From Fidelibacterota bacterium (GTDB lineage Bacteria > Fidelibacterota > Marinisomatia > Marinisomatales > TCS56), in assembly GCA_043822705.1 (NCBI GenBank), contig JBDRBK010000060.1, forward strand, positions 1 through 64,000: a stretch of 64,000 bases of DNA. Reading direction: 5' to 3'. Numbering within the stretch: position 1 is the first letter of the stretch; the number at the start of each line of letters is the position of its first letter. Shown here piece after piece: positions 3,281 to 12,899 of the stretch. Both the position numbers and the translations under genes were made by a program. The notes under the pieces were generated by a model. The model did not search any database, was not told the origin of the DNA, and was given only the letters and a program-made list of their open reading frames with translations.

Positions 3281-3304
3281 TATTTGGAAAAACGCGAGGG
3301 ATAT

Positions 3305-4057
3305 ATGCAGAAAACACAGGTAGCGAAATATTTTGCAGTCTGGTTCCTGATAGTATTGACGAAAACGGCAGCAGCCGATTTGCCGGGAGGGTTTGTCTAT
3401 GTCACCGCCGTCGTCCCGGATATCGTCCTGGATATTCGTTATTCCGGCAACCACAATTTTCTCGGCACGCGTGTCGATGGCTATGATGCCCCGGTCGGCA
3501 TTGTGACCGAAAAGGCGGCCCTGGCCCTGGCCGAAGTTCAGCAGGATTTGAAGGCATTCGGTTTCGGACTGAAATTATACGACGCCTACCGTCCCCAACG
3601 GGCCGTCGATCATTTTGTGCGCTGGGCGACGGATTTCGGCGACACGCTCACAAAAAAGGAATTTTATCCAACTTTAGCAAAACCGGTGCTGCTGGAGGAA
3701 GTGTATATCGCTACCCGTTCCAGTCATACCCGTGGCAGCGCGGTGGATTTGACGATTGTGCCGTTGCCGGTCCCGTACCAGCCACCATTCGAAATCGACC
3801 GGCAGTGCGATTGCTCGCGTGGTTCCGCCACTGGATTCCGGGATAACAGCATCGACATGGGTTCCGGCTTTGATTGCTTTCATGAAATCTCCCATACCGC
3901 CAATCCCAACCTGACCGAACAGCAGCGGACCAACCGGTTACTGCTAAAATCGATTATGGAGAAATACGGCTTTAAAAATTACGCCAAGGAATGGTGGCAT
4001 TTTAACTATCGCGACGAACCATTCCCCGATACTTATTTCGATTTCATTATAGAATAA
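3305..4057 (+). CDS. D-alanyl-D-alanine dipeptidase (M15D, VanX/DdpX family), probable signal peptide
   Basis: DIRYSG.HNFLG, YDAYRP, SSHTRGSAVDLT, DMGSGFD, EWWHF. Confidence 0.92.
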   Translation: MQKTQVAKYFAVWFLIVLTKTAAADLPGGFVYVTAVVPDIVLDIRYSGNHNFLGTRVDGYDAPVGIVTEKAALALAEVQQDLKAFGFGLKLYDAYRPQRAVDHFVRWATDFGDTLTKKEFYPTLAKPVLLEEVYIATRSSHTRGSAVDLTIVPLPVPYQPPFEIDRQCDCSRGSATGFRDNSIDMGSGFDCFHEISHTANPNLTEQQRTNRLLLKSIMEKYGFKNYAKEWWHFNYRDEPFPDTYFDFIIE

Positions 4058-4107: not shown

Positions 4108-5124
4108 TCAGAAGATCGAATTAAGTATTTTCGGACTGCGCAGTTTCCAGCTGCCGCGATGATAGGCGTCGCTGATCAGTAGTGGCAAGTTGACGGTCGC
4201 CTCACCATAAACCATTTGCTCGTAAGTCACATCGACTTTGCCCCAGGAACAGGCTTCCTTCAGGGTCGAACCGGAAAGGGCGCCGTCGCGTTCGTCAGCC
4301 ACCGTCAATTGCAGGGCATATTTGTGCATCGGCTGCTCCTTACCCAGGATATCGGTGGCCACGACCACGTCCTGAGTGAAATTCTTGGGAACGCCGCCGC
4401 CGATCATCAGAATACCGGATTCTCCTAGGTGCAGTTTGATCTCAGTCAGCTCCTTGAAATCGGCCACGGAATCGATCGTCAGATGCCCGGCTGTATTGTG
4501 GATCTGGTGATAGATCAGTCCGAAGCCGGCGGAACAGTCGGAAAAGGCCGGCACGAAGATCGGGACCTGCCGCTGGTAGGCCGAGTAGACGATCGATTGG
4601 TCGCATTTCAATCCCTGCTCTTCCAGATACCGGCCCATGGCGGTGATGAATTCCCGGGAGGAGTAGGGCCGTGGTTCGAGGGTATCGGCGATTTTGGCGA
4701 TGGTCATGTCGCAGACCCGCAGCTCATCTTCATCGATATACGTGTCATAAATCCGGTCGATCGCCAGATCCCGCAGAACCAGGTCGTCGGCGGTGGGACT
4801 GCCCTGGTAGTGACAGAATCCCAGGGCCTCGAAAAAGTCCTGGTCGACGATATTGGCGCCGGTGGATACGATCGCATCGACCATGTTGTTTTCGATCATG
4901 TCGACGATAATTTTTTTCAAGCCGGCGGAAATCAATGAACCGGCCAGGGTCAGTATAATGCCGCAGTCGCGGTCGGCCAGCATGCGATCGTAAATATCGG
5001 CGGCGTTAGCCAGGTTGCGGGCCTGGAAAGCCATGCCCCGGAATGAATCGATCAGTGGTCGGGCATCGAAACTGGTGATGTCGATGTGGGCGATCTTATC
5101 TTTCAGAAAATTCTCTTTTTTCAA
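4108..5124 (-). CDS. Deoxyhypusine synthase-like protein (candidate homospermidine synthase)
   Basis: STGAN, RIYD, GGGVPKN, DGALSGSTLKEACSWGK (catalytic Lys motif EAxSWGK). Confidence 0.9.
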   Translation of the reverse strand: MKKENFLKDKIAHIDITSFDARPLIDSFRGMAFQARNLANAADIYDRMLADRDCGIILTLAGSLISAGLKKIIVDMIENNMVDAIVSTGANIVDQDFFEALGFCHYQGSPTADDLVLRDLAIDRIYDTYIDEDELRVCDMTIAKIADTLEPRPYSSREFITAMGRYLEEQGLKCDQSIVYSAYQRQVPIFVPAFSDCSAGFGLIYHQIHNTAGHLTIDSVADFKELTEIKLHLGESGILMIGGGVPKNFTQDVVVATDILGKEQPMHKYALQLTVADERDGALSGSTLKEACSWGKVDVTYEQMVYGEATVNLPLLISDAYHRGSWKLRSPKILNSIF

Positions 5125-6005
5125 CTTAATAAACCTTTTCGTTTGGCGGTTAGCAGGGAAATAAACTGGTAAATCAATTTAGCGGCCAGGAAATCCGGCG
5201 CCTTGTTGCTGGGGTTGGGCGCCAGTTCGGTCACGTCGAAGCCGACCACGTTTTTAGCACGGCAGACCGCTGTCAGGGTGTCGAGCACCTGGTACCAGTG
5301 CAGACCGCCGGGCTCGGGCGTCCCGGTGGATGGGACAAGCGCCGGATCGAAGCAGTCCAGATCGATGGTGACATAGACATTTTCAGTCAGACGTTCCACG
5401 ACCCGGGGGATGAAATCGACGCGATCGCGGATCTGATGGGCGAAGAAAGTCCGCACCGGCTGCAACAGCGTCAGCTCGCCGGCCTCCATGCTGCGGATAC
5501 CGACCTGGACATAGTCACCTAATTCCGCCGCCCGCGCCATGACACAGGCGTGACTGAAGCGGGAATTTTCATATTCGTCGCGGGTGTCGGAATGGGCGTC
5601 GAATTGCAGGACCGAAAGGTTGTCAAAACAGCGGTGATGGGCCCGGATCAGTCCGATGGCGACTGAGTGGTTGCCGCCAATCCCGATCACTGTTTTACCG
5701 TCCTGCAGTAGGGCCGTGGCGGTTTCGTCAACCCGCTCGACCAGGTCCTCGGCCGAGGTGAATCGATCGACCGGCGCCAGCGTCACGATACCATCGCGCC
5801 AGGCCTCGATCCCGGTGGGAATATCATACAGTTCCATGTTGGCTGACGCTTCCAGAATGGCGTCCGGTCCGCGATCGGCGCCTTTCAGCCAGGTCGAAGT
5901 CAGGTCGAACGGAACCGGTAGCACAACATAGCGTGCGGTTGCATATTCAGGGAATGGTTCGATCCCCCCGAATGCGCCGGGGTTGGGATGAAGGTTAACC
6001 TTCAC
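5121..6005 (-). CDS. speB: Agmatinase (ureohydrolase family)
   Basis: GGNHS, DAHSD, DLDCFDP, STGTPEPGGL metal-binding motifs. Confidence 0.88.
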   Translation of the reverse strand: MKVNLHPNPGAFGGIEPFPEYATARYVVLPVPFDLTSTWLKGADRGPDAILEASANMELYDIPTGIEAWRDGIVTLAPVDRFTSAEDLVERVDETATALLQDGKTVIGIGGNHSVAIGLIRAHHRCFDNLSVLQFDAHSDTRDEYENSRFSHACVMARAAELGDYVQVGIRSMEAGELTLLQPVRTFFAHQIRDRVDFIPRVVERLTENVYVTIDLDCFDPALVPSTGTPEPGGLHWYQVLDTLTAVCRAKNVVGFDVTELAPNPSNKAPDFLAAKLIYQFISLLTAKRKGLLS

Positions 6006-6024
6006 TGCGGCCTGTCAGGAAACC

Positions 6025-6426
6025 CTAATTCGGGAAATCGGCGCCGCGGTCGGTAAGGGCGACCTGGGGCGTTTTACTTTCCAGGGCTTCAATAATATAG
6101 GTTTTTGTTTTTTCAACGTCAAAGGGTTTGCATGAAAAAACATCAACAAAGGCATAATTCTTAAGCGGATAAGTGTGGATTGAAATATGACTTTCGGCAA
6201 TAATCACCACCCCGGTAATCCCGGCATCTTCCGGTACTTTTCCTTCGTAACGGAAAACATAGGGGCGGGTGATTTTGGTCATTCCAATCGATTCAGGTAA
6301 CGAATCCAATAAACGGTAGCAATATTCAAGATCATTCAGTTTGTCTGGATTGCAATTGCTAAGATCCAGCATCAGGTGGGGGCCATACCCGACTGTCTTG
6401 GTCATCCGGCATAAAATTCCTTTCAT
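6025..6426 (-). CDS. speD: Pyruvoyl-dependent AdoMetDC (SpeD/SpeH)-family decarboxylase proenzyme; may act on arginine
   Basis: G.HLMLDL, GITGVVIIAESHISIHTYP (E-S autocleavage site), DVFSC. Confidence 0.85.
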   Translation of the reverse strand: MKGILCRMTKTVGYGPHLMLDLSNCNPDKLNDLEYCYRLLDSLPESIGMTKITRPYVFRYEGKVPEDAGITGVVIIAESHISIHTYPLKNYAFVDVFSCKPFDVEKTKTYIIEALESKTPQVALTDRGADFPN

Positions 6427-7044
6427 ATAATTGTTCAGGGTTTAAAGCCTTTTTTCCCAAGGGAAAATAGCCGCCGACGTTATTAAAAAATAGAATACTA
6501 AGAAACAATTATATTCAATAAGTGAATAATATTTTCCCCAAGGATTCTTCTCCCGGGGCGGCTGGGAGTAATCCTGACTGCCAGGCTGATTTTTTTCCGG
6601 TTCGGGCCGCCGGATATAATATTCGGATTAACGGTCCGGTCGGGAAAAATTTCTTCCTGCGACAAAGTTGGACCGGGAATGTGTAAGTAGCTATAATTAA
6701 GATTGATAGACAAATCAATCGAGTCTTGGAATACTGAAAAAAAACTTTGGAAAATCAAAAAAATATATACCTGTTTTCTAATACATTTGTAATATTATGC
6801 AACGAAAATGACAATCATTAATTCACTTCAAAATTGTCACTATAGCCGACCGGTTTCGGACCGGCCGGCAGCCCGCGTTTTTACCGGATAAATCGTCGGT
6901 TATCCTCGTTATCTGAGGCCAAGTAAAACCGCAACCAGCCCAACCCGGTAAGCAATCCAAGGAAAGCAGTCCTGTCATCACCCCCTGCGTGCATAATGCA
7001 TTTAATTCACCCTCACGCATAAACCAAGAAAGGAGTTCCCGATT

Positions 7045-8361
7045 ATGGACAATACTCACATTGACCTGAAGCCCCCCAGCCAACGAAACAAAACCGGTTT
7101 GTCGATTTTAAATCAGGTTTCACTGCCTTCTAATTCCATTGTCTCAACTATACTCACCACCAATTTTTTTGAAGAACAAAAAAAATATCGTACTCGTCCT
7201 GCCTCTGCAGCCCAGATTTTCCGCAAGAAATTTTACCCGCAGGTAACGGCTGCCGAATGGGATGACTGGCGCTGGCAGCTCAACAAACGCATCCGTGATG
7301 CCAAAACAATCGGCGCGATGGTTAACCTGTCGGCGGCCGAGCTAAATTATTTCAATGAACGGAATGACCATTTGCCGATGGCGGTCACTCCCTATTATGC
7401 CAGCCTGATCGATCCCGATAACCCGGCCGATCCGATTCGCCGCAGCGTGATTCCGGTGACCGGCGAATTAACCAGTGCACCCGAGGAATCGGCCGATCCT
7501 CTGCATGAGGATGGCGACAGTCCGGTGCCGGGGATCATCCACCGTTACCCGGACCGGGTCCTGTTCCTGGTCACGGATTACTGTTCCGTCTACTGCCGTT
7601 ATTGCACCCGCTCGCGCCTGGTCGGCGGCGGCGGGGATTTCGTGTTTTCCAAATCGCAGTGGGAGGCGGCCCTGCAGTACATCGCCGCCACGCCCGCGAT
7701 CCGCGATGTCCTGATCTCGGGTGGCGATCCGCTGACTCTGGCCGACGAACGGCTCGAATATCTGCTGCGGCGGCTGCGGGCGATTCCGCATGTTGAAATC
7801 ATCCGGATCGGCACTAAAGTACCGGCCGTTCTACCACAGCGGATTACACTGTCCCTGACGCGGATGTTGAAAAAATATCACCCGCTCTGGATCAGTCTGA
7901 ATTTCATGCATCCGCGGGAGCTGACCCCGGAAGCCGGGCGGGCCTGCCAGCGGCTGGCCGATGCCGGTATTCCATTGGGCAGCCAGACCGTGCTGATGGC
8001 CGGCATCAACGACTCTGTCGAAACATTGAAGTCATTATTCCATGGTCTGCTCAAGCAACGGGTGCGGCCCTACTACCTGTACCAGTGTGACCCGATTCAG
8101 GGCAGCGCGCATTTCCGTACGCCGGTCAGCACCGGCCTGGAAATCATCCGGCAATTGCGCGGGCATACCAGCGGTTATGCCATCCCCAGTTATGTGATCG
8201 ACGCCCCCGGCGGCGGCGGCAAGATTCAATTGCTGCCCGACGCGGTGGTCCGCCGCAATAAGGATGGCTGGTATCTGCGCAGCTACGACGGCAAGGATTA
8301 TTTCTATCCCGATCCCAAGCCGTTGCGACGTCAGCAACAATCGCCGCCGAACGGGTGCTGA
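7045..8361 (+). CDS. KamA-family radical SAM amino-acid 2,3-aminomutase
   Basis: W.DWRWQL, HRYPDRVL, CSVYCRYC (CxxxCxxC), SGGDPL, PYYLYQCD, DAPGGGGK (PLP Lys). Confidence 0.92.
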   Translation: MDNTHIDLKPPSQRNKTGLSILNQVSLPSNSIVSTILTTNFFEEQKKYRTRPASAAQIFRKKFYPQVTAAEWDDWRWQLNKRIRDAKTIGAMVNLSAAELNYFNERNDHLPMAVTPYYASLIDPDNPADPIRRSVIPVTGELTSAPEESADPLHEDGDSPVPGIIHRYPDRVLFLVTDYCSVYCRYCTRSRLVGGGGDFVFSKSQWEAALQYIAATPAIRDVLISGGDPLTLADERLEYLLRRLRAIPHVEIIRIGTKVPAVLPQRITLSLTRMLKKYHPLWISLNFMHPRELTPEAGRACQRLADAGIPLGSQTVLMAGINDSVETLKSLFHGLLKQRVRPYYLYQCDPIQGSAHFRTPVSTGLEIIRQLRGHTSGYAIPSYVIDAPGGGGKIQLLPDAVVRRNKDGWYLRSYDGKDYFYPDPKPLRRQQQSPPNGC

Positions 8362-8365
8362 TTCG

Positions 8366-9361
8366 ATGCCCGGACGCAAACAAAAACGCCTGACGGTCGG
8401 CCTGACCTACGACCGCCGCTCCGACTATCTGGCGCTTGGCTACGGCGAGGAAGAAACGGCCGAGTTCGACCGTGACGACACGATTACGGCGCTTGACACG
8501 ACTTTGCTCAGCCTCGGCTATGCTACCGATCATATCGGCCATGTTCGAAACCTGATTCACCGACTGGACCAGGGCGAGCGCTGGGATCTGGTCTTCAATA
8601 TCGCCGAAGGACTTTACGGCGTCGGGCGGGAAGCGCTGGTGCCGGCCCTGCTGGACGCCTACCGGATACCGTATGTGTTTTCCGATCCACTGGTTCTGGC
8701 GGTGACGCTGCACAAGGGCATGACGAAGCGGATCATCCGCGATCTGGGACTGCCGACTCCAGATTTTGCCGTTGTCGAAAACGAAACCGAGCTGGCAGCG
8801 GTCGATCTGCCGTTTCCATTGTTTGTAAAACCGGTGGCTGAAGGTACGGGCAAGGGGATATCCGAACATTCGCTGGTGTCGACCAAGGACGCGCTGCAAC
8901 TGGTCTGCCGGTCGATCTGGCAGAATTTCCGGCAGCCGGCCCTGGTCGAAAGCTATCTGGCCGGACGGGAATATACCGTCGGAGTCGTCGGCACCGGTCC
9001 CCAGGCCCGCGCAGTCGGCGTCATGGAAGTAACCATGCTGGCCGGGGATCAGGATGAAATTTATTCCTATGAAAATAAGGAATTTTACGAGGAACGGGTC
9101 AGGTATGTCCCCTGTACCGGGCCTGAAGCAGCGGCCATGATCGAGCTGTCCCTGGCGGTCTGGCGCGGACTGGGTTGCCGCGATGGCGGCCGCGTCGACC
9201 TGCGCTGCGACGAACATGGCAAGCCCAATTTCCTTGAAGTAAATCCCCTGGCCGGTCTCCATCCGCGGCATTCCGATCTGCCGATTCTGTCCGGTCTCGC
9301 CGGTCTGTCCTACGCCGATCTGCTGCGGCAGATCATGGAATCGGCCTGCGAACGGCTTTGA
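8366..9361 (+). CDS. D-Ala-D-Ala ligase-like ATP-grasp amide ligase 1
   Basis: VFNIAEG, FVKPVAEGTGKGI, ESYLAGREYTV, RVDLR, FLEVNPLAG; lacks the canonical Ddl GGxSxE N-terminal motif; ATG at 8366. Confidence 0.85.
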   Translation: MPGRKQKRLTVGLTYDRRSDYLALGYGEEETAEFDRDDTITALDTTLLSLGYATDHIGHVRNLIHRLDQGERWDLVFNIAEGLYGVGREALVPALLDAYRIPYVFSDPLVLAVTLHKGMTKRIIRDLGLPTPDFAVVENETELAAVDLPFPLFVKPVAEGTGKGISEHSLVSTKDALQLVCRSIWQNFRQPALVESYLAGREYTVGVVGTGPQARAVGVMEVTMLAGDQDEIYSYENKEFYEERVRYVPCTGPEAAAMIELSLAVWRGLGCRDGGRVDLRCDEHGKPNFLEVNPLAGLHPRHSDLPILSGLAGLSYADLLRQIMESACERL

Positions 9362-10359
9362 TGAAAGCGCTTATTCTCCACGACACGGTCGCCGCCGATG
9401 CCGCCCCGGATACTCAGGACGTCCTGGTCCAGGCTCGGCATGTGCGGCAAGCGCTGGAAGAACTTGGTTATACGGTTGAAATAATCCCGGTAACACTCGA
9501 TATGGAAACGCTCCGCCGCCGATTGGTTACGGCCGGACCGGAAATCGTTTTCAATCTGGTGGAGTCGATCGCCAACCAGGGGTGTTTCAGCGCCTGGGTA
9601 CCGGCGTTGCTGGATTCCCTGGATTTGGCCTATACCGGCGCCAGTGCCGAGACGTTGTTCCTGACATCAAGTAAATTATTGACCAAACAATTGCTGCAGG
9701 CGCAGGGATTGCCGACACCAGCCTGGGAAACCAGAATATCACTGACTGGTGGAAAAGCATTTGAACCGGGCGAATATATTATCAAACCGGTCTGGGAAGA
9801 CGCCAGCATCGGTCTGGATGAGGATTCGGTTGTAGCGGTTGAAACGGCTCGGGAGCTGGCACACGCCTGGACGAAAATACCTGGCATCGATAGTCTGGAA
9901 TGTTTCGCGGAACGCTACATCTCCGGCCGTGAATTTGCTGTTGCATTGATTGCTGACGGCGATCGGGCATGGACGCTACCGCCGGCAGAAATGGTTTTTA
10001 ATGATTATGCTCCCGGTAAGCACCGGATTCTGGGCTACCGGGCCAAGTGGGACGAAGAGTCGTTTGAATATCGCCATACCAACCGGCGTTTCGACCTGCC
10101 GGCCGAAGATCATGCTCTGGCGCTGACCCTGACCGCGCTGGCCGACCGGAGCTGGTCCGCAGGTGGCGGTCGCGGATACGGCCGTGTGGATTTCCGGGTC
10201 GATGAGGCTGGCCATCCCTGGATTCTGGAAATCAATGCCAATCCCTGTCTGGCGCCGGATGCCGGTTTCACGGCTGCCGCCGAACGGGCCGGCCTGACCT
10301 TCACTGGAACAATCGATCTGATCGTCCGTGACGCACTCCGGCGTAAAAACCACAGGTAA
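9361..10359 (+). CDS. D-Ala-D-Ala ligase-like ATP-grasp amide ligase 2
   Basis: VFNLVES, IIKPVWEDASIG, ERYISGREF, RVDFR, LEINANPC; TGATG coupling to ligase 1. Confidence 0.85.
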   Translation: MKALILHDTVAADAAPDTQDVLVQARHVRQALEELGYTVEIIPVTLDMETLRRRLVTAGPEIVFNLVESIANQGCFSAWVPALLDSLDLAYTGASAETLFLTSSKLLTKQLLQAQGLPTPAWETRISLTGGKAFEPGEYIIKPVWEDASIGLDEDSVVAVETARELAHAWTKIPGIDSLECFAERYISGREFAVALIADGDRAWTLPPAEMVFNDYAPGKHRILGYRAKWDEESFEYRHTNRRFDLPAEDHALALTLTALADRSWSAGGGRGYGRVDFRVDEAGHPWILEINANPCLAPDAGFTAAAERAGLTFTGTIDLIVRDALRRKNHR

Positions 10360-10362
10360 ATA

Positions 10363-10881
10363 ATGAAATCCCGCCTACTGCAATTGTCTTTCCGTACCAC
10401 CGTTACCACCGCTGACGTGCATAACATTCGCCGCTTATTGCAGGCCAATAAACGTTATTTCTATCCGCACGAGGTCAAAACCGCCGTCGAACTGGTCACA
10501 GAACGACTCGCCAAGCGCCGTCGCAGCGGCTACTGGTTTATCTTTGCTGAATCTGAGGGACGAGTCGTCGGTTATACCTGTTTTGGTCCGATTCCCTGTA
10601 CGGCCGCCGGCTTCGATCTGTACTGGATCACCGTCCATCCCGACTGGCAGGGGCGGGGGATCGGGCGGGAACTGCTGGAAAGAACCGAGAAGGCCATCCG
10701 GCGGCGGCGGGGCCAACGGATTTATATTGAGACTTCCGGCCGGCCGGTGTACGCGACAACCCGCGCCTTTTATGGGCGCTGCGGTTATGACGAAACGGCG
10801 ATTCTACCGGAATTTTATGGTCCCGATGACGATAAATTCATCTATTCTAAACGAATGAGCGAGGCGGCTGAACAACAATAA
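10363..10881 (+). CDS. GNAT family N-acetyltransferase
   Basis: LYWITVHPDWQGRGIG acetyl-CoA motif A; FY..CGY. Confidence 0.9.
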   Translation: MKSRLLQLSFRTTVTTADVHNIRRLLQANKRYFYPHEVKTAVELVTERLAKRRRSGYWFIFAESEGRVVGYTCFGPIPCTAAGFDLYWITVHPDWQGRGIGRELLERTEKAIRRRRGQRIYIETSGRPVYATTRAFYGRCGYDETAILPEFYGPDDDKFIYSKRMSEAAEQQ

Positions 10882-10998: not shown

Positions 10999-11604
10999 AT
11001 GGAAAGTTTTTTTGATTCTACTCTGTTCCACTGGGTGATTCTGCCGCTGCTGATTTTTCTGGCGCGAATCCTCGATGTATCGATCGGTACGGTACGGATT
11101 ATTTTTGTATCCCGTGGTTTGAAAATGATGGCGGCTTTTCTGGGCTTCGTGGAAGTGCTGATATGGATCAGCGTCATCGGTCAGGTCCTGCAGAATCTGA
11201 CCAATCCGGTAACCTACATCGCATATGCCGCCGGCTTTGCCACCGGCAATTATATCGGAATACTGATCGAGCAGCGCATCTCGATCGGTAAAATCATCAT
11301 CCGGATCATTACCGCCGACAACACCGATGATCTGCGCAAACATCTGAAATCGCACAGCATCCGCTACACTGTCATCGATGCCGCCGGCAGCACCGGCAGC
11401 GTCCAGTTATTATTTACGATCATGGACCGTAGTAAACTCCCGCTTATGCTGGAAAAAATCAATAAGTACAATCCCACTGCGTTTTATTCGATCGAGGATG
11501 TCCGGCAGGTTCGCGAGGGCGAATTCCCCGGTTCGTTCCGGCCAGTCAACGCCCGGCGACCGTTTTCCCGGATCCGGCAGTTTTCGATCATGAAGAAGAA
11601 ATAA
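10999..11604 (+). CDS. DUF2179/UPF0316 family membrane protein (N-terminal TM helices, C-terminal PII-like domain)
   Basis: ARILDVSIGTVR, YAAGFATGNYIG, C-terminal AFYSIEDVR. Confidence 0.8.
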   Translation: MESFFDSTLFHWVILPLLIFLARILDVSIGTVRIIFVSRGLKMMAAFLGFVEVLIWISVIGQVLQNLTNPVTYIAYAAGFATGNYIGILIEQRISIGKIIIRIITADNTDDLRKHLKSHSIRYTVIDAAGSTGSVQLLFTIMDRSKLPLMLEKINKYNPTAFYSIEDVRQVREGEFPGSFRPVNARRPFSRIRQFSIMKKK

Positions 11605-11609
11605 CCGCC

Positions 11610-12899
11610 ATGTCGTTGATCAACGACTATATCGCTCAATATCTGCGCGAGCTGGATTTTTACCGCGAAGTGGCCCGCATCTGCGCCCAGCAATGTGAGA
11701 ACGAACTGGAGCAGAATGGTATCCGCGCCATCGTAACCAATCGGGTGAAACGCTCCGACCGGGTCCGGAAAAAAATCGAGGCGCGCAATAAAAAGAAGCA
11801 TTACCGCAATTTCGAAGATATCAGCAATGATGTCATGGACCTGGCCGGGGTGCGGATCGCCCTGTACTTTCCGGCGGACCAGACGGAAGTGGACCGGATC
11901 ATAAAAAATGGCTTCGAGGTACTCAAAATAATCGAATTTCCCAAGCCGCCGGACACGGAAAAATTCAAGCGCAGCAATCCCGGTTACCGGGCCGTGCATT
12001 ACCGGGTGCGGCTCCAGAAAAAAAATCTGTCGGACTCCCAGTTGAAATTCCTCAGCGCCAATATTGAAATCCAGGTAGCTTCGATCCTGATGCACGCCTG
12101 GGCGGAGGTGGATCACGATCTGGTTTACAAATCAATCGACAAGGCCCCGTCCGCCGAAGAAATTGATATTCTGGAAGAGCTGAATGGTCTGGTCCTGCTG
12201 GGTGAGAAAGTGCTGAATCGCCTGTACAAGAGTATCGAACGGCGGGTCGAGCGTGAAAATTTCTCCAATCACTATGAACTGGCGGCCCATCTCTATTCCC
12301 TGGTTAAAATCAATCCGGTCGGTACGGTCGCCGAGCCGGACATGGGCCGGACCGATATTTTATTCCGCTTCCTGACCTCGATCGATGGCAATAATCCCGG
12401 TTTTCTCCAGGAACGGGTCAAGCATATCCGGTCCGACCTACCGGTTGTCCGGCAGATTGTCGACGACCTGATCTTTGCCGACGCCCGGCTGTATGATTTA
12501 TTCATCAGCGCCAAGCAGGAGGTCGGCGCCCGTGCACCCTATGATTACAACGATACCTATTTCCACAAGGAGTTGACCAGTAACCTGCGACGGGACTTTT
12601 TACGCGTGTGGATTATGCTGGAAAAAATTACCGATTCGATAAAAGGTGATAAACTATCGCTCCTGTGTAATGAAGACCTGATTACGTTCGCCAGAAAATG
12701 GTCGTTACCCGATAAAGACCTGATGTCACTGGAGAAATTCAAGGATCTACGCAACGATCTGATTCACGGACTGGATCCGCCGTCACCCCGGGTACTGGAA
12801 GAAGGAATCGCCACGCTTAAGGGAATTCTTACCGTAATTTCACCCAGCTTGCCCGAACGGTTGCGGACCGAAATAAAACGTCTCAAAATATCGGGGTAA
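11610..12899 (+). CDS. RelA/SpoT-domain small alarmone synthetase with C-terminal HEPN-like domain
   Basis: Synthetase motifs RVK, DLAGVRI, GYRAVHY, EIQVASILMHAWAEVDHDLVYK; C-terminal FLRVWIMLE...LRNDLIHG (RxxxxH). Confidence 0.85.
   Translation: MSLINDYIAQYLRELDFYREVARICAQQCENELEQNGIRAIVTNRVKRSDRVRKKIEARNKKKHYRNFEDISNDVMDLAGVRIALYFPADQTEVDRIIKNGFEVLKIIEFPKPPDTEKFKRSNPGYRAVHYRVRLQKKNLSDSQLKFLSANIEIQVASILMHAWAEVDHDLVYKSIDKAPSAEEIDILEELNGLVLLGEKVLNRLYKSIERRVERENFSNHYELAAHLYSLVKINPVGTVAEPDMGRTDILFRFLTSIDGNNPGFLQERVKHIRSDLPVVRQIVDDLIFADARLYDLFISAKQEVGARAPYDYNDTYFHKELTSNLRRDFLRVWIMLEKITDSIKGDKLSLLCNEDLITFARKWSLPDKDLMSLEKFKDLRNDLIHGLDPPSPRVLEEGIATLKGILTVISPSLPERLRTEIKRLKISG

Follow-up and report, generated by a model that had tools for sequence, protein, structure and literature searches.

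Introduction

What might two ATP-grasp ligases of the D-alanyl-D-alanine ligase (Ddl) fold build when they are encoded together with an aminomutase and an acetyltransferase, back to back with a set of polyamine genes? The question is raised by positions 4108–10881 of a 64,000-nucleotide stretch of DNA from a Fidelibacterota bacterium (contig JBDRBK010000060.1 of assembly GCA_043822705.1), the whole of which we call the window. The left operon (minus strand) comprises speY, speB, and a speD-like gene, and the right operon (plus strand) is a cassette of kamA, ligase 1, ligase 2, and a small N-acetyltransferase of the GNAT family. A preliminary description of this DNA had paired the two operons and suggested a β-aminoacyl amide or dipeptide, possibly acetyl-capped and built on a polyamine supplied by the left operon. 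We propose that the product of the cassette would be an acetyl-capped β-lysyl-polyamine, for which homospermidine is the likely acceptor here, and we put the probability of this reading at about 45%. The left operon is known biochemistry; the cassette is widespread and uncharacterised, and the new leads are operons that join related ligases to polyamine genes and a codon-biased proline head on KamA.

Results

A probable lysine aminomutase

Gene families were assigned by Pfam and NCBIfam profiles. KamA (7045–8361, plus strand) scores over the cut-off of TIGR00238 but does not reach those set for AblA, EpmB, glutamate mutase, and arginine mutase; the AblA model is best (483 bits against a cut-off of 525), followed by glutamate (416), arginine (381), and EpmB (256). 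KamA aligns to the solved lysine 2,3-aminomutase of PDB entry 2a5h (E 3e-133) and has the CxxxCxxC motif, the pyridoxal phosphate (PLP) lysine, and the Arg/Asp/Asp lysine-binding set. Residues R189, D349, D386, and K393 match R134, D293, D330, and K337 of 2a5h and do not vary in any of 74 sequences; in 2a5h, we take the Arg/Asp/Asp set to bind lysine and the remaining residue to be the PLP lysine. The only KamA in the window's genome is therefore likely, to judge by these residues, to be a radical S-adenosylmethionine/PLP lysine 2,3-aminomutase that makes β-lysine.

The combination of a lysine-type aminomutase with an acetyltransferase is common to the cassette and the AblA/AblB system. The cassette KamA, however, scores too low for the AblA cut-off and branches outside the AblA clade, the GNAT gives no match to TIGR03827 (AblB), and two ligases are added. 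AblAB can also adjoin the cassette as a separate unit. At L183 9883–12062, a second KamA follows the cassette and belongs to a full AblA-AblB pair, the members of which scored as controls 786 bits (TIGR03820) and 329 bits (TIGR03827). The existence of this separate pair behind the cassette argues that the cassette's product is not simply acetyl-β-lysine. A second KamA follows the cassette at L182 and L200 as well.

Two ligases with altered pockets

Ligase 1 (8366–9361, plus strand; PF07478, ATP-grasp) and the Ddl-like ATP-grasp ligase 2 (9361–10359, plus strand, starting at the ATG at 9361) both keep the ATP-grasp catalytic Lys, Arg-x-Asp, and Glu-x-Asn, as the preliminary description had held. 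Its further point, that the Ddl motif GGxSxE is lost, stands only for the GGxS part. An acidic residue stays in this N-terminal stretch, as AE33FD in 81 of 81 cases for ligase 1 and as D18/D21 at a frequency of at least 90% for ligase 2, and it is probably equivalent to Glu15 of Ddl. The two ligases score 147 and 107 bits against a Ddl cut-off of 243, and they fall far short of the cut-offs of all Van models. The true Ddl of the genome lies on C206, with 193 bits compared with 85 and 59 for the window ligases.

The model of ligase 1 (predicted local distance difference test score 91.5) superposes on Ddl structures with template modeling (TM) scores of 0.70–0.77 and has Glu81 at the position of a Ddl His and Asp304 at that of a Ddl Leu. 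The Ddl pocket segments LHG, HSL, and YDY-AKY read FNIAEG, HSDL, and YSYENK in ligase 1 and FNLVE, DAGF, and YRAKW in ligase 2, and the extra acidic residues in both pockets would fit cationic substrates. Compared with D-Ala-D-Ala and Van ligases, the fold (from the ligase 1 model) and the ATP/metal catalytic residues are the same, but the pocket is altered, there are two divergent paralogues, the context is not that of the cell wall, and a true Ddl is encoded elsewhere. The earlier view that the right operon is something other than a cell-wall Ddl and most likely builds a β-amino-acid amide holds up, with β-lysine suggested by the active-site residues of KamA.

Ligase 2 is fused to a GNAT in P0004, P0029, P0045, P0056, and P0061 and to ligase 1 in L070; the predicted complex of ligases 1 and 2 scored 0.12 against a mark of 0.32. 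A methyltransferase fused to a single Ddl-like ligase occurs at L268 8387–10327 and also at L267, L269, and L271; the four genomes concerned (G628, G408, G540, and G478) show no KamA, so this is a further orphan family.

An acetyltransferase and a predicted amidohydrolase partner

The GNAT (10363–10881, plus strand; 172 residues) is an orthologue of the uncharacterised protein in PDB entry 2r7h, which is titled a putative D-alanine N-acetyltransferase. Fusions of a GNAT to a deacetylase occur among the cassette loci, in or beside 25 of the 80 ligase-1 loci surveyed (below), and in 28 of 60 cassette genomes compared with none of 20 relatives without the cassette. The best solved relatives of the fusion are acetylpolyamine amidohydrolases (E 1e-73 to 2e-66 for the orthologue at L080). 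In the window's genome, a GNAT-amidohydrolase stands alone at C128 22370–24124 (L082 10371–12125) and is 58% identical to the in-cassette copies. Its domain of the histone deacetylase fold is closest to acetylpolyamine amidohydrolases, with metal and catalytic motifs intact, and we predict that it has this activity.

Related ligases in polyamine operons

With a more distant ligase 1 as query, 301 genomes from the phylum to which G061 (a deltaproteobacterial record) belongs were searched, and 20 of the 21 best loci were examined. At 15 of these 20, the gene immediately before the ligase pair, on the same strand and often with 4-nt overlaps, encodes a pyruvoyl arginine decarboxylase, and an agmatinase (14 loci) and a DHS-like (deoxyhypusine synthase-like) gene (8 loci) are also found. 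A lysine-type KamA is encoded in 15 of 16 such genomes, in 13 of them elsewhere and in 2 inside the operon, between decarboxylase and ligases.

The arrangement can be seen at L236–L247, L251, L252, and L254 (for example, L239 2837–7449), where the operon reads DHS-like gene, agmatinase, pyruvoyl arginine decarboxylase, two Ddl-like ligases, and in some a GNAT, and kamA lies elsewhere, behind a small gene for a MerR-type helix-turn-helix (HTH) protein. Nine of these loci run on into a small membrane protein, and seven have GT4 glycosyltransferases, methyltransferases also being nearby.

In a FastTree phylogeny of 127 sequences of ligase 1 (28 picked at random from the first 80 loci, and all later ones), the decarboxylase-linked ligases form three groups of one large clade, which possibly go back to one ancestral arrangement; the window ligase falls in another clade. 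The decarboxylase of the deltaproteobacterial operons is, moreover, not homologous to the SpeD-like protein of the window. The separate clade and the non-homologous decarboxylase together argue for at least two independent linkages of ligases to polyamine genes, of which the window looks like the second. Further polyamine ties are possible at loci with a PuuR-like HTH-cupin regulator nearby (L262, L263, L265, L266, and L270) and with a gene for a PuuD-like peptidase of family C26 nearby (L261 7916–8638).

The left operon as a probable homospermidine pathway

The speD-like gene (6025–6426, minus strand) matches PF02675 and TIGR03330 (83 bits) and is the sole SpeD copy in the genome, which is 93% complete. 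PdaD was searched for in this genome and not found, the single fold-III decarboxylase is LysA, and the only SpeE match is a 718-residue membrane fusion that scores under all cut-offs. The context is therefore that of SpeDA, a SpeD homologue that adjoins speB and speY while canonical SpeE, SpeA, and PdaD were not found in the genome. A membrane-fused spermidine-synthase-like protein is encoded at L083 4030–6186, behind a gene set that we take to be AmmeMemoRadiSAM-like.

A Marinimicrobia SpeD from a SpeD-SpeB-SpeY cluster has been assayed and decarboxylates arginine (PMC10407285). According to the same source, a proline that is invariant in true S-adenosylmethionine decarboxylases is variable in SpeDA, and SpeDA is poorly separable by sequence. 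The SpeD of the window carries ESHISIHTYP, as do its SpeY-linked relatives; the position of the diagnostic proline is marked only in a figure of PMC10407285. The SpeD of P0242 is 82% identical to that of the window. Although sequence cannot surely separate the two activities, the speD-like gene likely encodes a neofunctionalised pyruvoyl arginine decarboxylase, SpeDA, which converts arginine to agmatine.

In the published pathway, SpeY couples two agmatines to the intermediate G44G, from which SpeB frees homospermidine (PMC13625781 and PMC10981699). SpeB of the window (5121–6005, minus strand) scores 227 bits with TIGR01230 against a cut-off of 174 and is likely an agmatinase-family ureohydrolase that acts on G44G to yield homospermidine. 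SpeY (4108–5124, minus strand) scores 573 bits with NF002699 against a cut-off of 500, with the true DHS models under cut-off, and its gene shares a cluster with those of a candidate arginine decarboxylase and of a ureohydrolase, an order found at 13 of 80 SpeY loci. The DHS-like gene is thus likely speY, encoding a small-molecule (G44G) synthase and no protein modifier. The left operon as a whole likely is the known homospermidine-from-arginine pathway, with activities assigned here by orthology. Because it fits a published stand-alone pathway (PMC10407285 and PMC13625781), it needs no partner. The same three families are found in one cluster as in the SpeDA-SpeB (DUH)-SpeY route, with no other arginine decarboxylase or canonical SpeE found in the genome, but the window's operon shares its intergenic region with a ligase cassette, and the portion of PMC13625781 considered here mentions no aminomutase or ligase neighbour.

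Distribution of the cassette

Eighty ligase-1 loci were surveyed, with flanks of up to 8 kb, many of them shorter; KamA was present at 76, ligase 2 at 75, and the GNAT at 60. The records span deltaproteobacteria, Bacteroidetes, planctomycetes, acidobacteria, alphaproteobacteria, and others, and 115 of the 301 genomes of G061's phylum match a ligase of this family. The kamA-ligase-ligase-GNAT set is a conserved, multi-phylum cassette. A search of plasmids gave one weak match and a search of viral contigs two loci at 35%. One viral contig of IMG/VR (L367 3199–5233) carries a distant ligase with kamA directly after it.

One family of the same phylum (L185–L194) has, in place of the cassette type of the window, a second type with the order ligase, ligase, GNAT, kamA and about 35% identity; all 10 of these genomes also match SpeY, unlinked. 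No paper on the cassette or on β-lysyl-polyamines was found in the open-access literature, a result that subscription papers and supplements could change.

An acidic proline-pair head on KamA

Near its start, KamA of the window reads Asp-Leu-Lys-Pro-Pro-Ser; the Lys-Pro-Pro-Ser part (7069..7080, plus strand), with proline codons CCC CCC, is a degenerate copy of an acidic Glu-Pro-Pro-(Gly/Ser) motif. That motif is found in 67 of 73 cassette KamA relatives compared with 8 of 563 and 10 of 1479 background open reading frames, 6–29 residues past the nearest Met and inside an otherwise unalignable N-terminal extension, which alignments suggest to be disordered. Codon use is skewed, with CCT as the first proline codon in 64 of 74 (13.7% in gene bodies) and CCA as the second in 35 of 74 (8.2%); the counts are inflated by kin, but the bias holds across phyla. 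An origin of the CCT preference in Shine-Dalgarno pairing is disfavoured, as 35 of the 41 genes that lack GGAGG upstream still have CCT. Frameshift stops have no fixed place.

When kamA comes last among the genes, the extension is generally absent; crude proline-pair counts by gene position (19 of 29 compared with 3 of 19) take in some starts that were extended wrongly and are to be read qualitatively. A similar acidic proline-pair loop occurs on some first-position ligases (51 of 120).

Escherichia coli selects against CCC/U-C and tunes pausing with CCA (PMC8129111), and acidic-plus-proline leaders such as MgtL sense Mg2+ (PMC12856214). The kamA head resembles MgtL and CadC in its acidic residues and proline pair near the start codon and in its non-CCG codons of the CCU-C type (PMC12856214 and PMC8129111). 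It differs in that it sits in the enzyme's own N-terminal extension, with no separate leader, and in that the window's copy is degenerate. Conservation and codon bias suggest that the head likely serves ribosome-pause control.

Layout, assembly support, and neighbouring genes

The seven open reading frames, their strands, and their spacings are as previously described, and the profile searches upheld their families. The junctions of the right operon are a 4-nt gap, a 1-nt overlap (TGATG), and a 3-nt gap. Between the operons lies a divergent intergenic region of 618 nt (6427..7044) that is A+T-rich, with 41% G+C. A contig of run X1 spans 6034–6994 with 33 letters different, and a contig of run X3 bridges 6987–7137 with none. 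Because these contigs cover the region, the divergent junction is no assembly artefact, and the X1 contig shows the intergenic region to be continuous in a related population.

A scan of 6427..7044 with Rfam returned no family, its two matches being at chance level, and promoter and terminator matches in the region were no more frequent than in shuffles. Sigma-70-like sites at 6669–6697 and 6707–6735 (plus strand) are likewise at shuffle level.

Convergent with speY lies a gene for a VanX-like D-Ala-D-Ala dipeptidase (3284–4057) with a signal-like N terminus. On the other side (10999–12899) stand a DUF5698/DUF2179 membrane protein and then a protein with a RelA/SpoT domain that resembles small alarmone synthetases and has a long C-terminal part. 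The VanX and DUF5698 neighbours were found at none of 80 related ligase-1 loci and stand outside the cassette. At 1956–2432, a 158-residue open reading frame without a Pfam match is coupled to an ABC transporter pair; we take it to resemble nucleoside deoxyribosyltransferase-like proteins.

Discussion

A β-lysyl-polyamine could arise from the encoded enzymes as follows. In the left operon, as known from published orthologues, SpeDA would convert arginine to agmatine, SpeY would couple two agmatines to G44G, and SpeB would convert G44G to homospermidine. KamA would supply β-lysine, whose carboxyl the ligases would link to the amino ends of a polyamine, here likely homospermidine; each ligase would form β-lysyl phosphate from ATP and then acylate an amine. 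The different pockets of the two ligases could mean two successive steps, for example, at both ends of a symmetric triamine; alternatively, the ligases would make a β-lysine dimer and then join it to the polyamine. The GNAT would cap a free amine with acetyl, and the separately encoded GNAT-amidohydrolase of C128 would strip it, which would make the acetyl a protecting group or a charge switch. The acidic proline-pair head of kamA would tune output via ribosome pausing.

Glutathionylspermidine and trypanothione synthetases are of the ATP-grasp type, acylate polyamines at their amino ends, and have a paired hydrolase. They may serve as a working analogy for the proposed ligase chemistry, although they belong to another ATP-grasp family, use another acyl donor, and show no sequence match to the window ligases.

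Several observations weigh against a polyamine acceptor, beginning with the layout of the window itself. The preliminary description had set the side-by-side co-occurrence of the two operons in other genomes as a test, and the pairing fails it. SpeY or SpeB was found at none of the 80 ligase-1 loci, and cassette genes at none of the 80 nearest SpeY loci, of which 48 have at least 4 kb upstream. Among 300 genomes of the same phylum, a close ligase 1 is present in 20 and SpeY in 22; the 8 with both have them on different contigs in every case. The same layout was found among neither 40 relatives nor 220 members of the order, a set that does not include the contig of the P0242 SpeD. The back-to-back position is lineage-specific. 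In 50 cassette genomes (from 50 of the 80 loci), SpeY scores over cut-off in only 8, with any DHS-like gene in 24.

Polyamine-synthesis neighbours were found at none of 20 acidobacterial, 20 planctomycete, and 20 further deltaproteobacterial loci and in total at only 16 of 189 cassette loci, 15 of them from one phylum. Of five genomes tested, two that carry the cassette, G117 (a single contig, 95% complete) and G143, show neither an agmatinase nor a DHS-like nor a canonical SpeE gene; each has only marginal matches to HSS/CASDH domains and two fold-III decarboxylases. Because β-lysine contains a diamine like that of putrescine, acetyl-β-lysine could itself be the substrate of the amidohydrolase, with no polyamine involved. 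The suggestion that polyamines supply the acceptor thus survives in part, carried by the decarboxylase operons and the amidohydrolase at the level of the family and not by the window's layout. The two operons could act together without being linked.

These observations leave room for another chemistry, in which the cassette uses β-lysine alone, itself the bearer of a carboxyl and two amines, to make an acetylated dimer or short oligomer that stands in for polyamines or acts as a compatible solute. The homospermidine operon would then be a neighbour by chance or through shared physiology and would supply no substrate. We consider this the main rival, somewhat less likely than the β-lysyl-polyamine. 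It would account for the 173 of 189 cassette loci without polyamine-synthesis genes and for G117 and G143, which show no triamine pathway, although polyamines there could be imported or made via the second fold-III decarboxylase. The two operons of the window may also have arrived separately at one spot, because neither was found in 40 relatives and the speD-like gene is found in none of 220 members of the order. It does not account for the operons in which decarboxylase, agmatinase, and ligase genes overlap and from which kamA has moved away. A quite improbable variant has KamA act on arginine or glutamate to give a β-arginine or β-glutamate conjugate tied to the arginine-agmatine pool; the shortfall of KamA from the AblA cut-off and the arginine-derived polyamine genes beside it would suit this, but both mutase models score lower still (for arginine, a comparison by profile, not by direct sequence), and the Asp/Asp/Arg lysine-binding set is invariant.

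Attachment of β-lysine or a polyamine to a protein, elongation factor P (EF-P) or another, with a GNAT/deacetylase switch and a proline-pair head that reports EF-P activity, seems unlikely to us. KamA and DHS homologues do feed translation-factor modifications in other organisms (PMC12856214), the proline-pair head is conserved on kamA, and the window genome has an EF-P with a Lys-type loop (KPGKG) and no EpmA, the search for which gave only two matches, under cut-off and in 499-residue frames. A KamA-family source of β-lysine is common to this locus and to EpmA/EpmB, but here KamA is not EpmB-like (256 bits against a cut-off of 369), and the ligases are unrelated to lysyl-tRNA synthetase. In 32 of 50 cassette genomes, EpmA passes its cut-off, which leaves no need for a substitute ligase in them; 10 cassette-free relatives also lack EpmA; no efp-like cluster is among the recurrent cassette neighbours; and the DHS homologue is SpeY, a small-molecule synthase. 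The pockets of the Ddl fold take small substrates, which also speaks against a protein acceptor. The EF-P/eIF5A alternative offered in the preliminary description is accordingly weakened. We hold it very unlikely that the ligases make a Van-like alternative peptidoglycan dipeptide with the help of the VanX-like dipeptidase, despite the Ddl fold, the adjoining VanX-like gene, and the title of 2r7h, given the true Ddl on C206, window ligases under every Ddl and Van cut-off, VanX at none of 80 related loci, replaced D-Ala pocket residues, and no Mur genes among the recurrent neighbours.

The reading that we prefer, an acetyl-capped β-lysyl-polyamine, can be widened to a class. A widespread family of β-lysyl-polyamines (for example, mono- and bis-β-lysyl-homospermidine), made by a repurposed D-Ala-D-Ala ligase pair, with an acetylase/deacetylase switch and a proline-pair feedback head as the bacterial counterpart of polyamine-sensing stall peptides, is a conceivable but less probable extension. 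Common among anaerobic and subsurface bacteria, the cassette is annotated as a cell-wall D-Ala-D-Ala ligase. The polyamine operons and the amidohydrolase that accompany related ligases reduce the candidate acceptors to a short list, and the window genome holds every proposed part: homospermidine route, cassette, and deacetylase. If the proposal is true, the extension of polyamines with β-lysine would offer a new route to long polycations that dispenses with S-adenosylmethionine-dependent aminopropylation.

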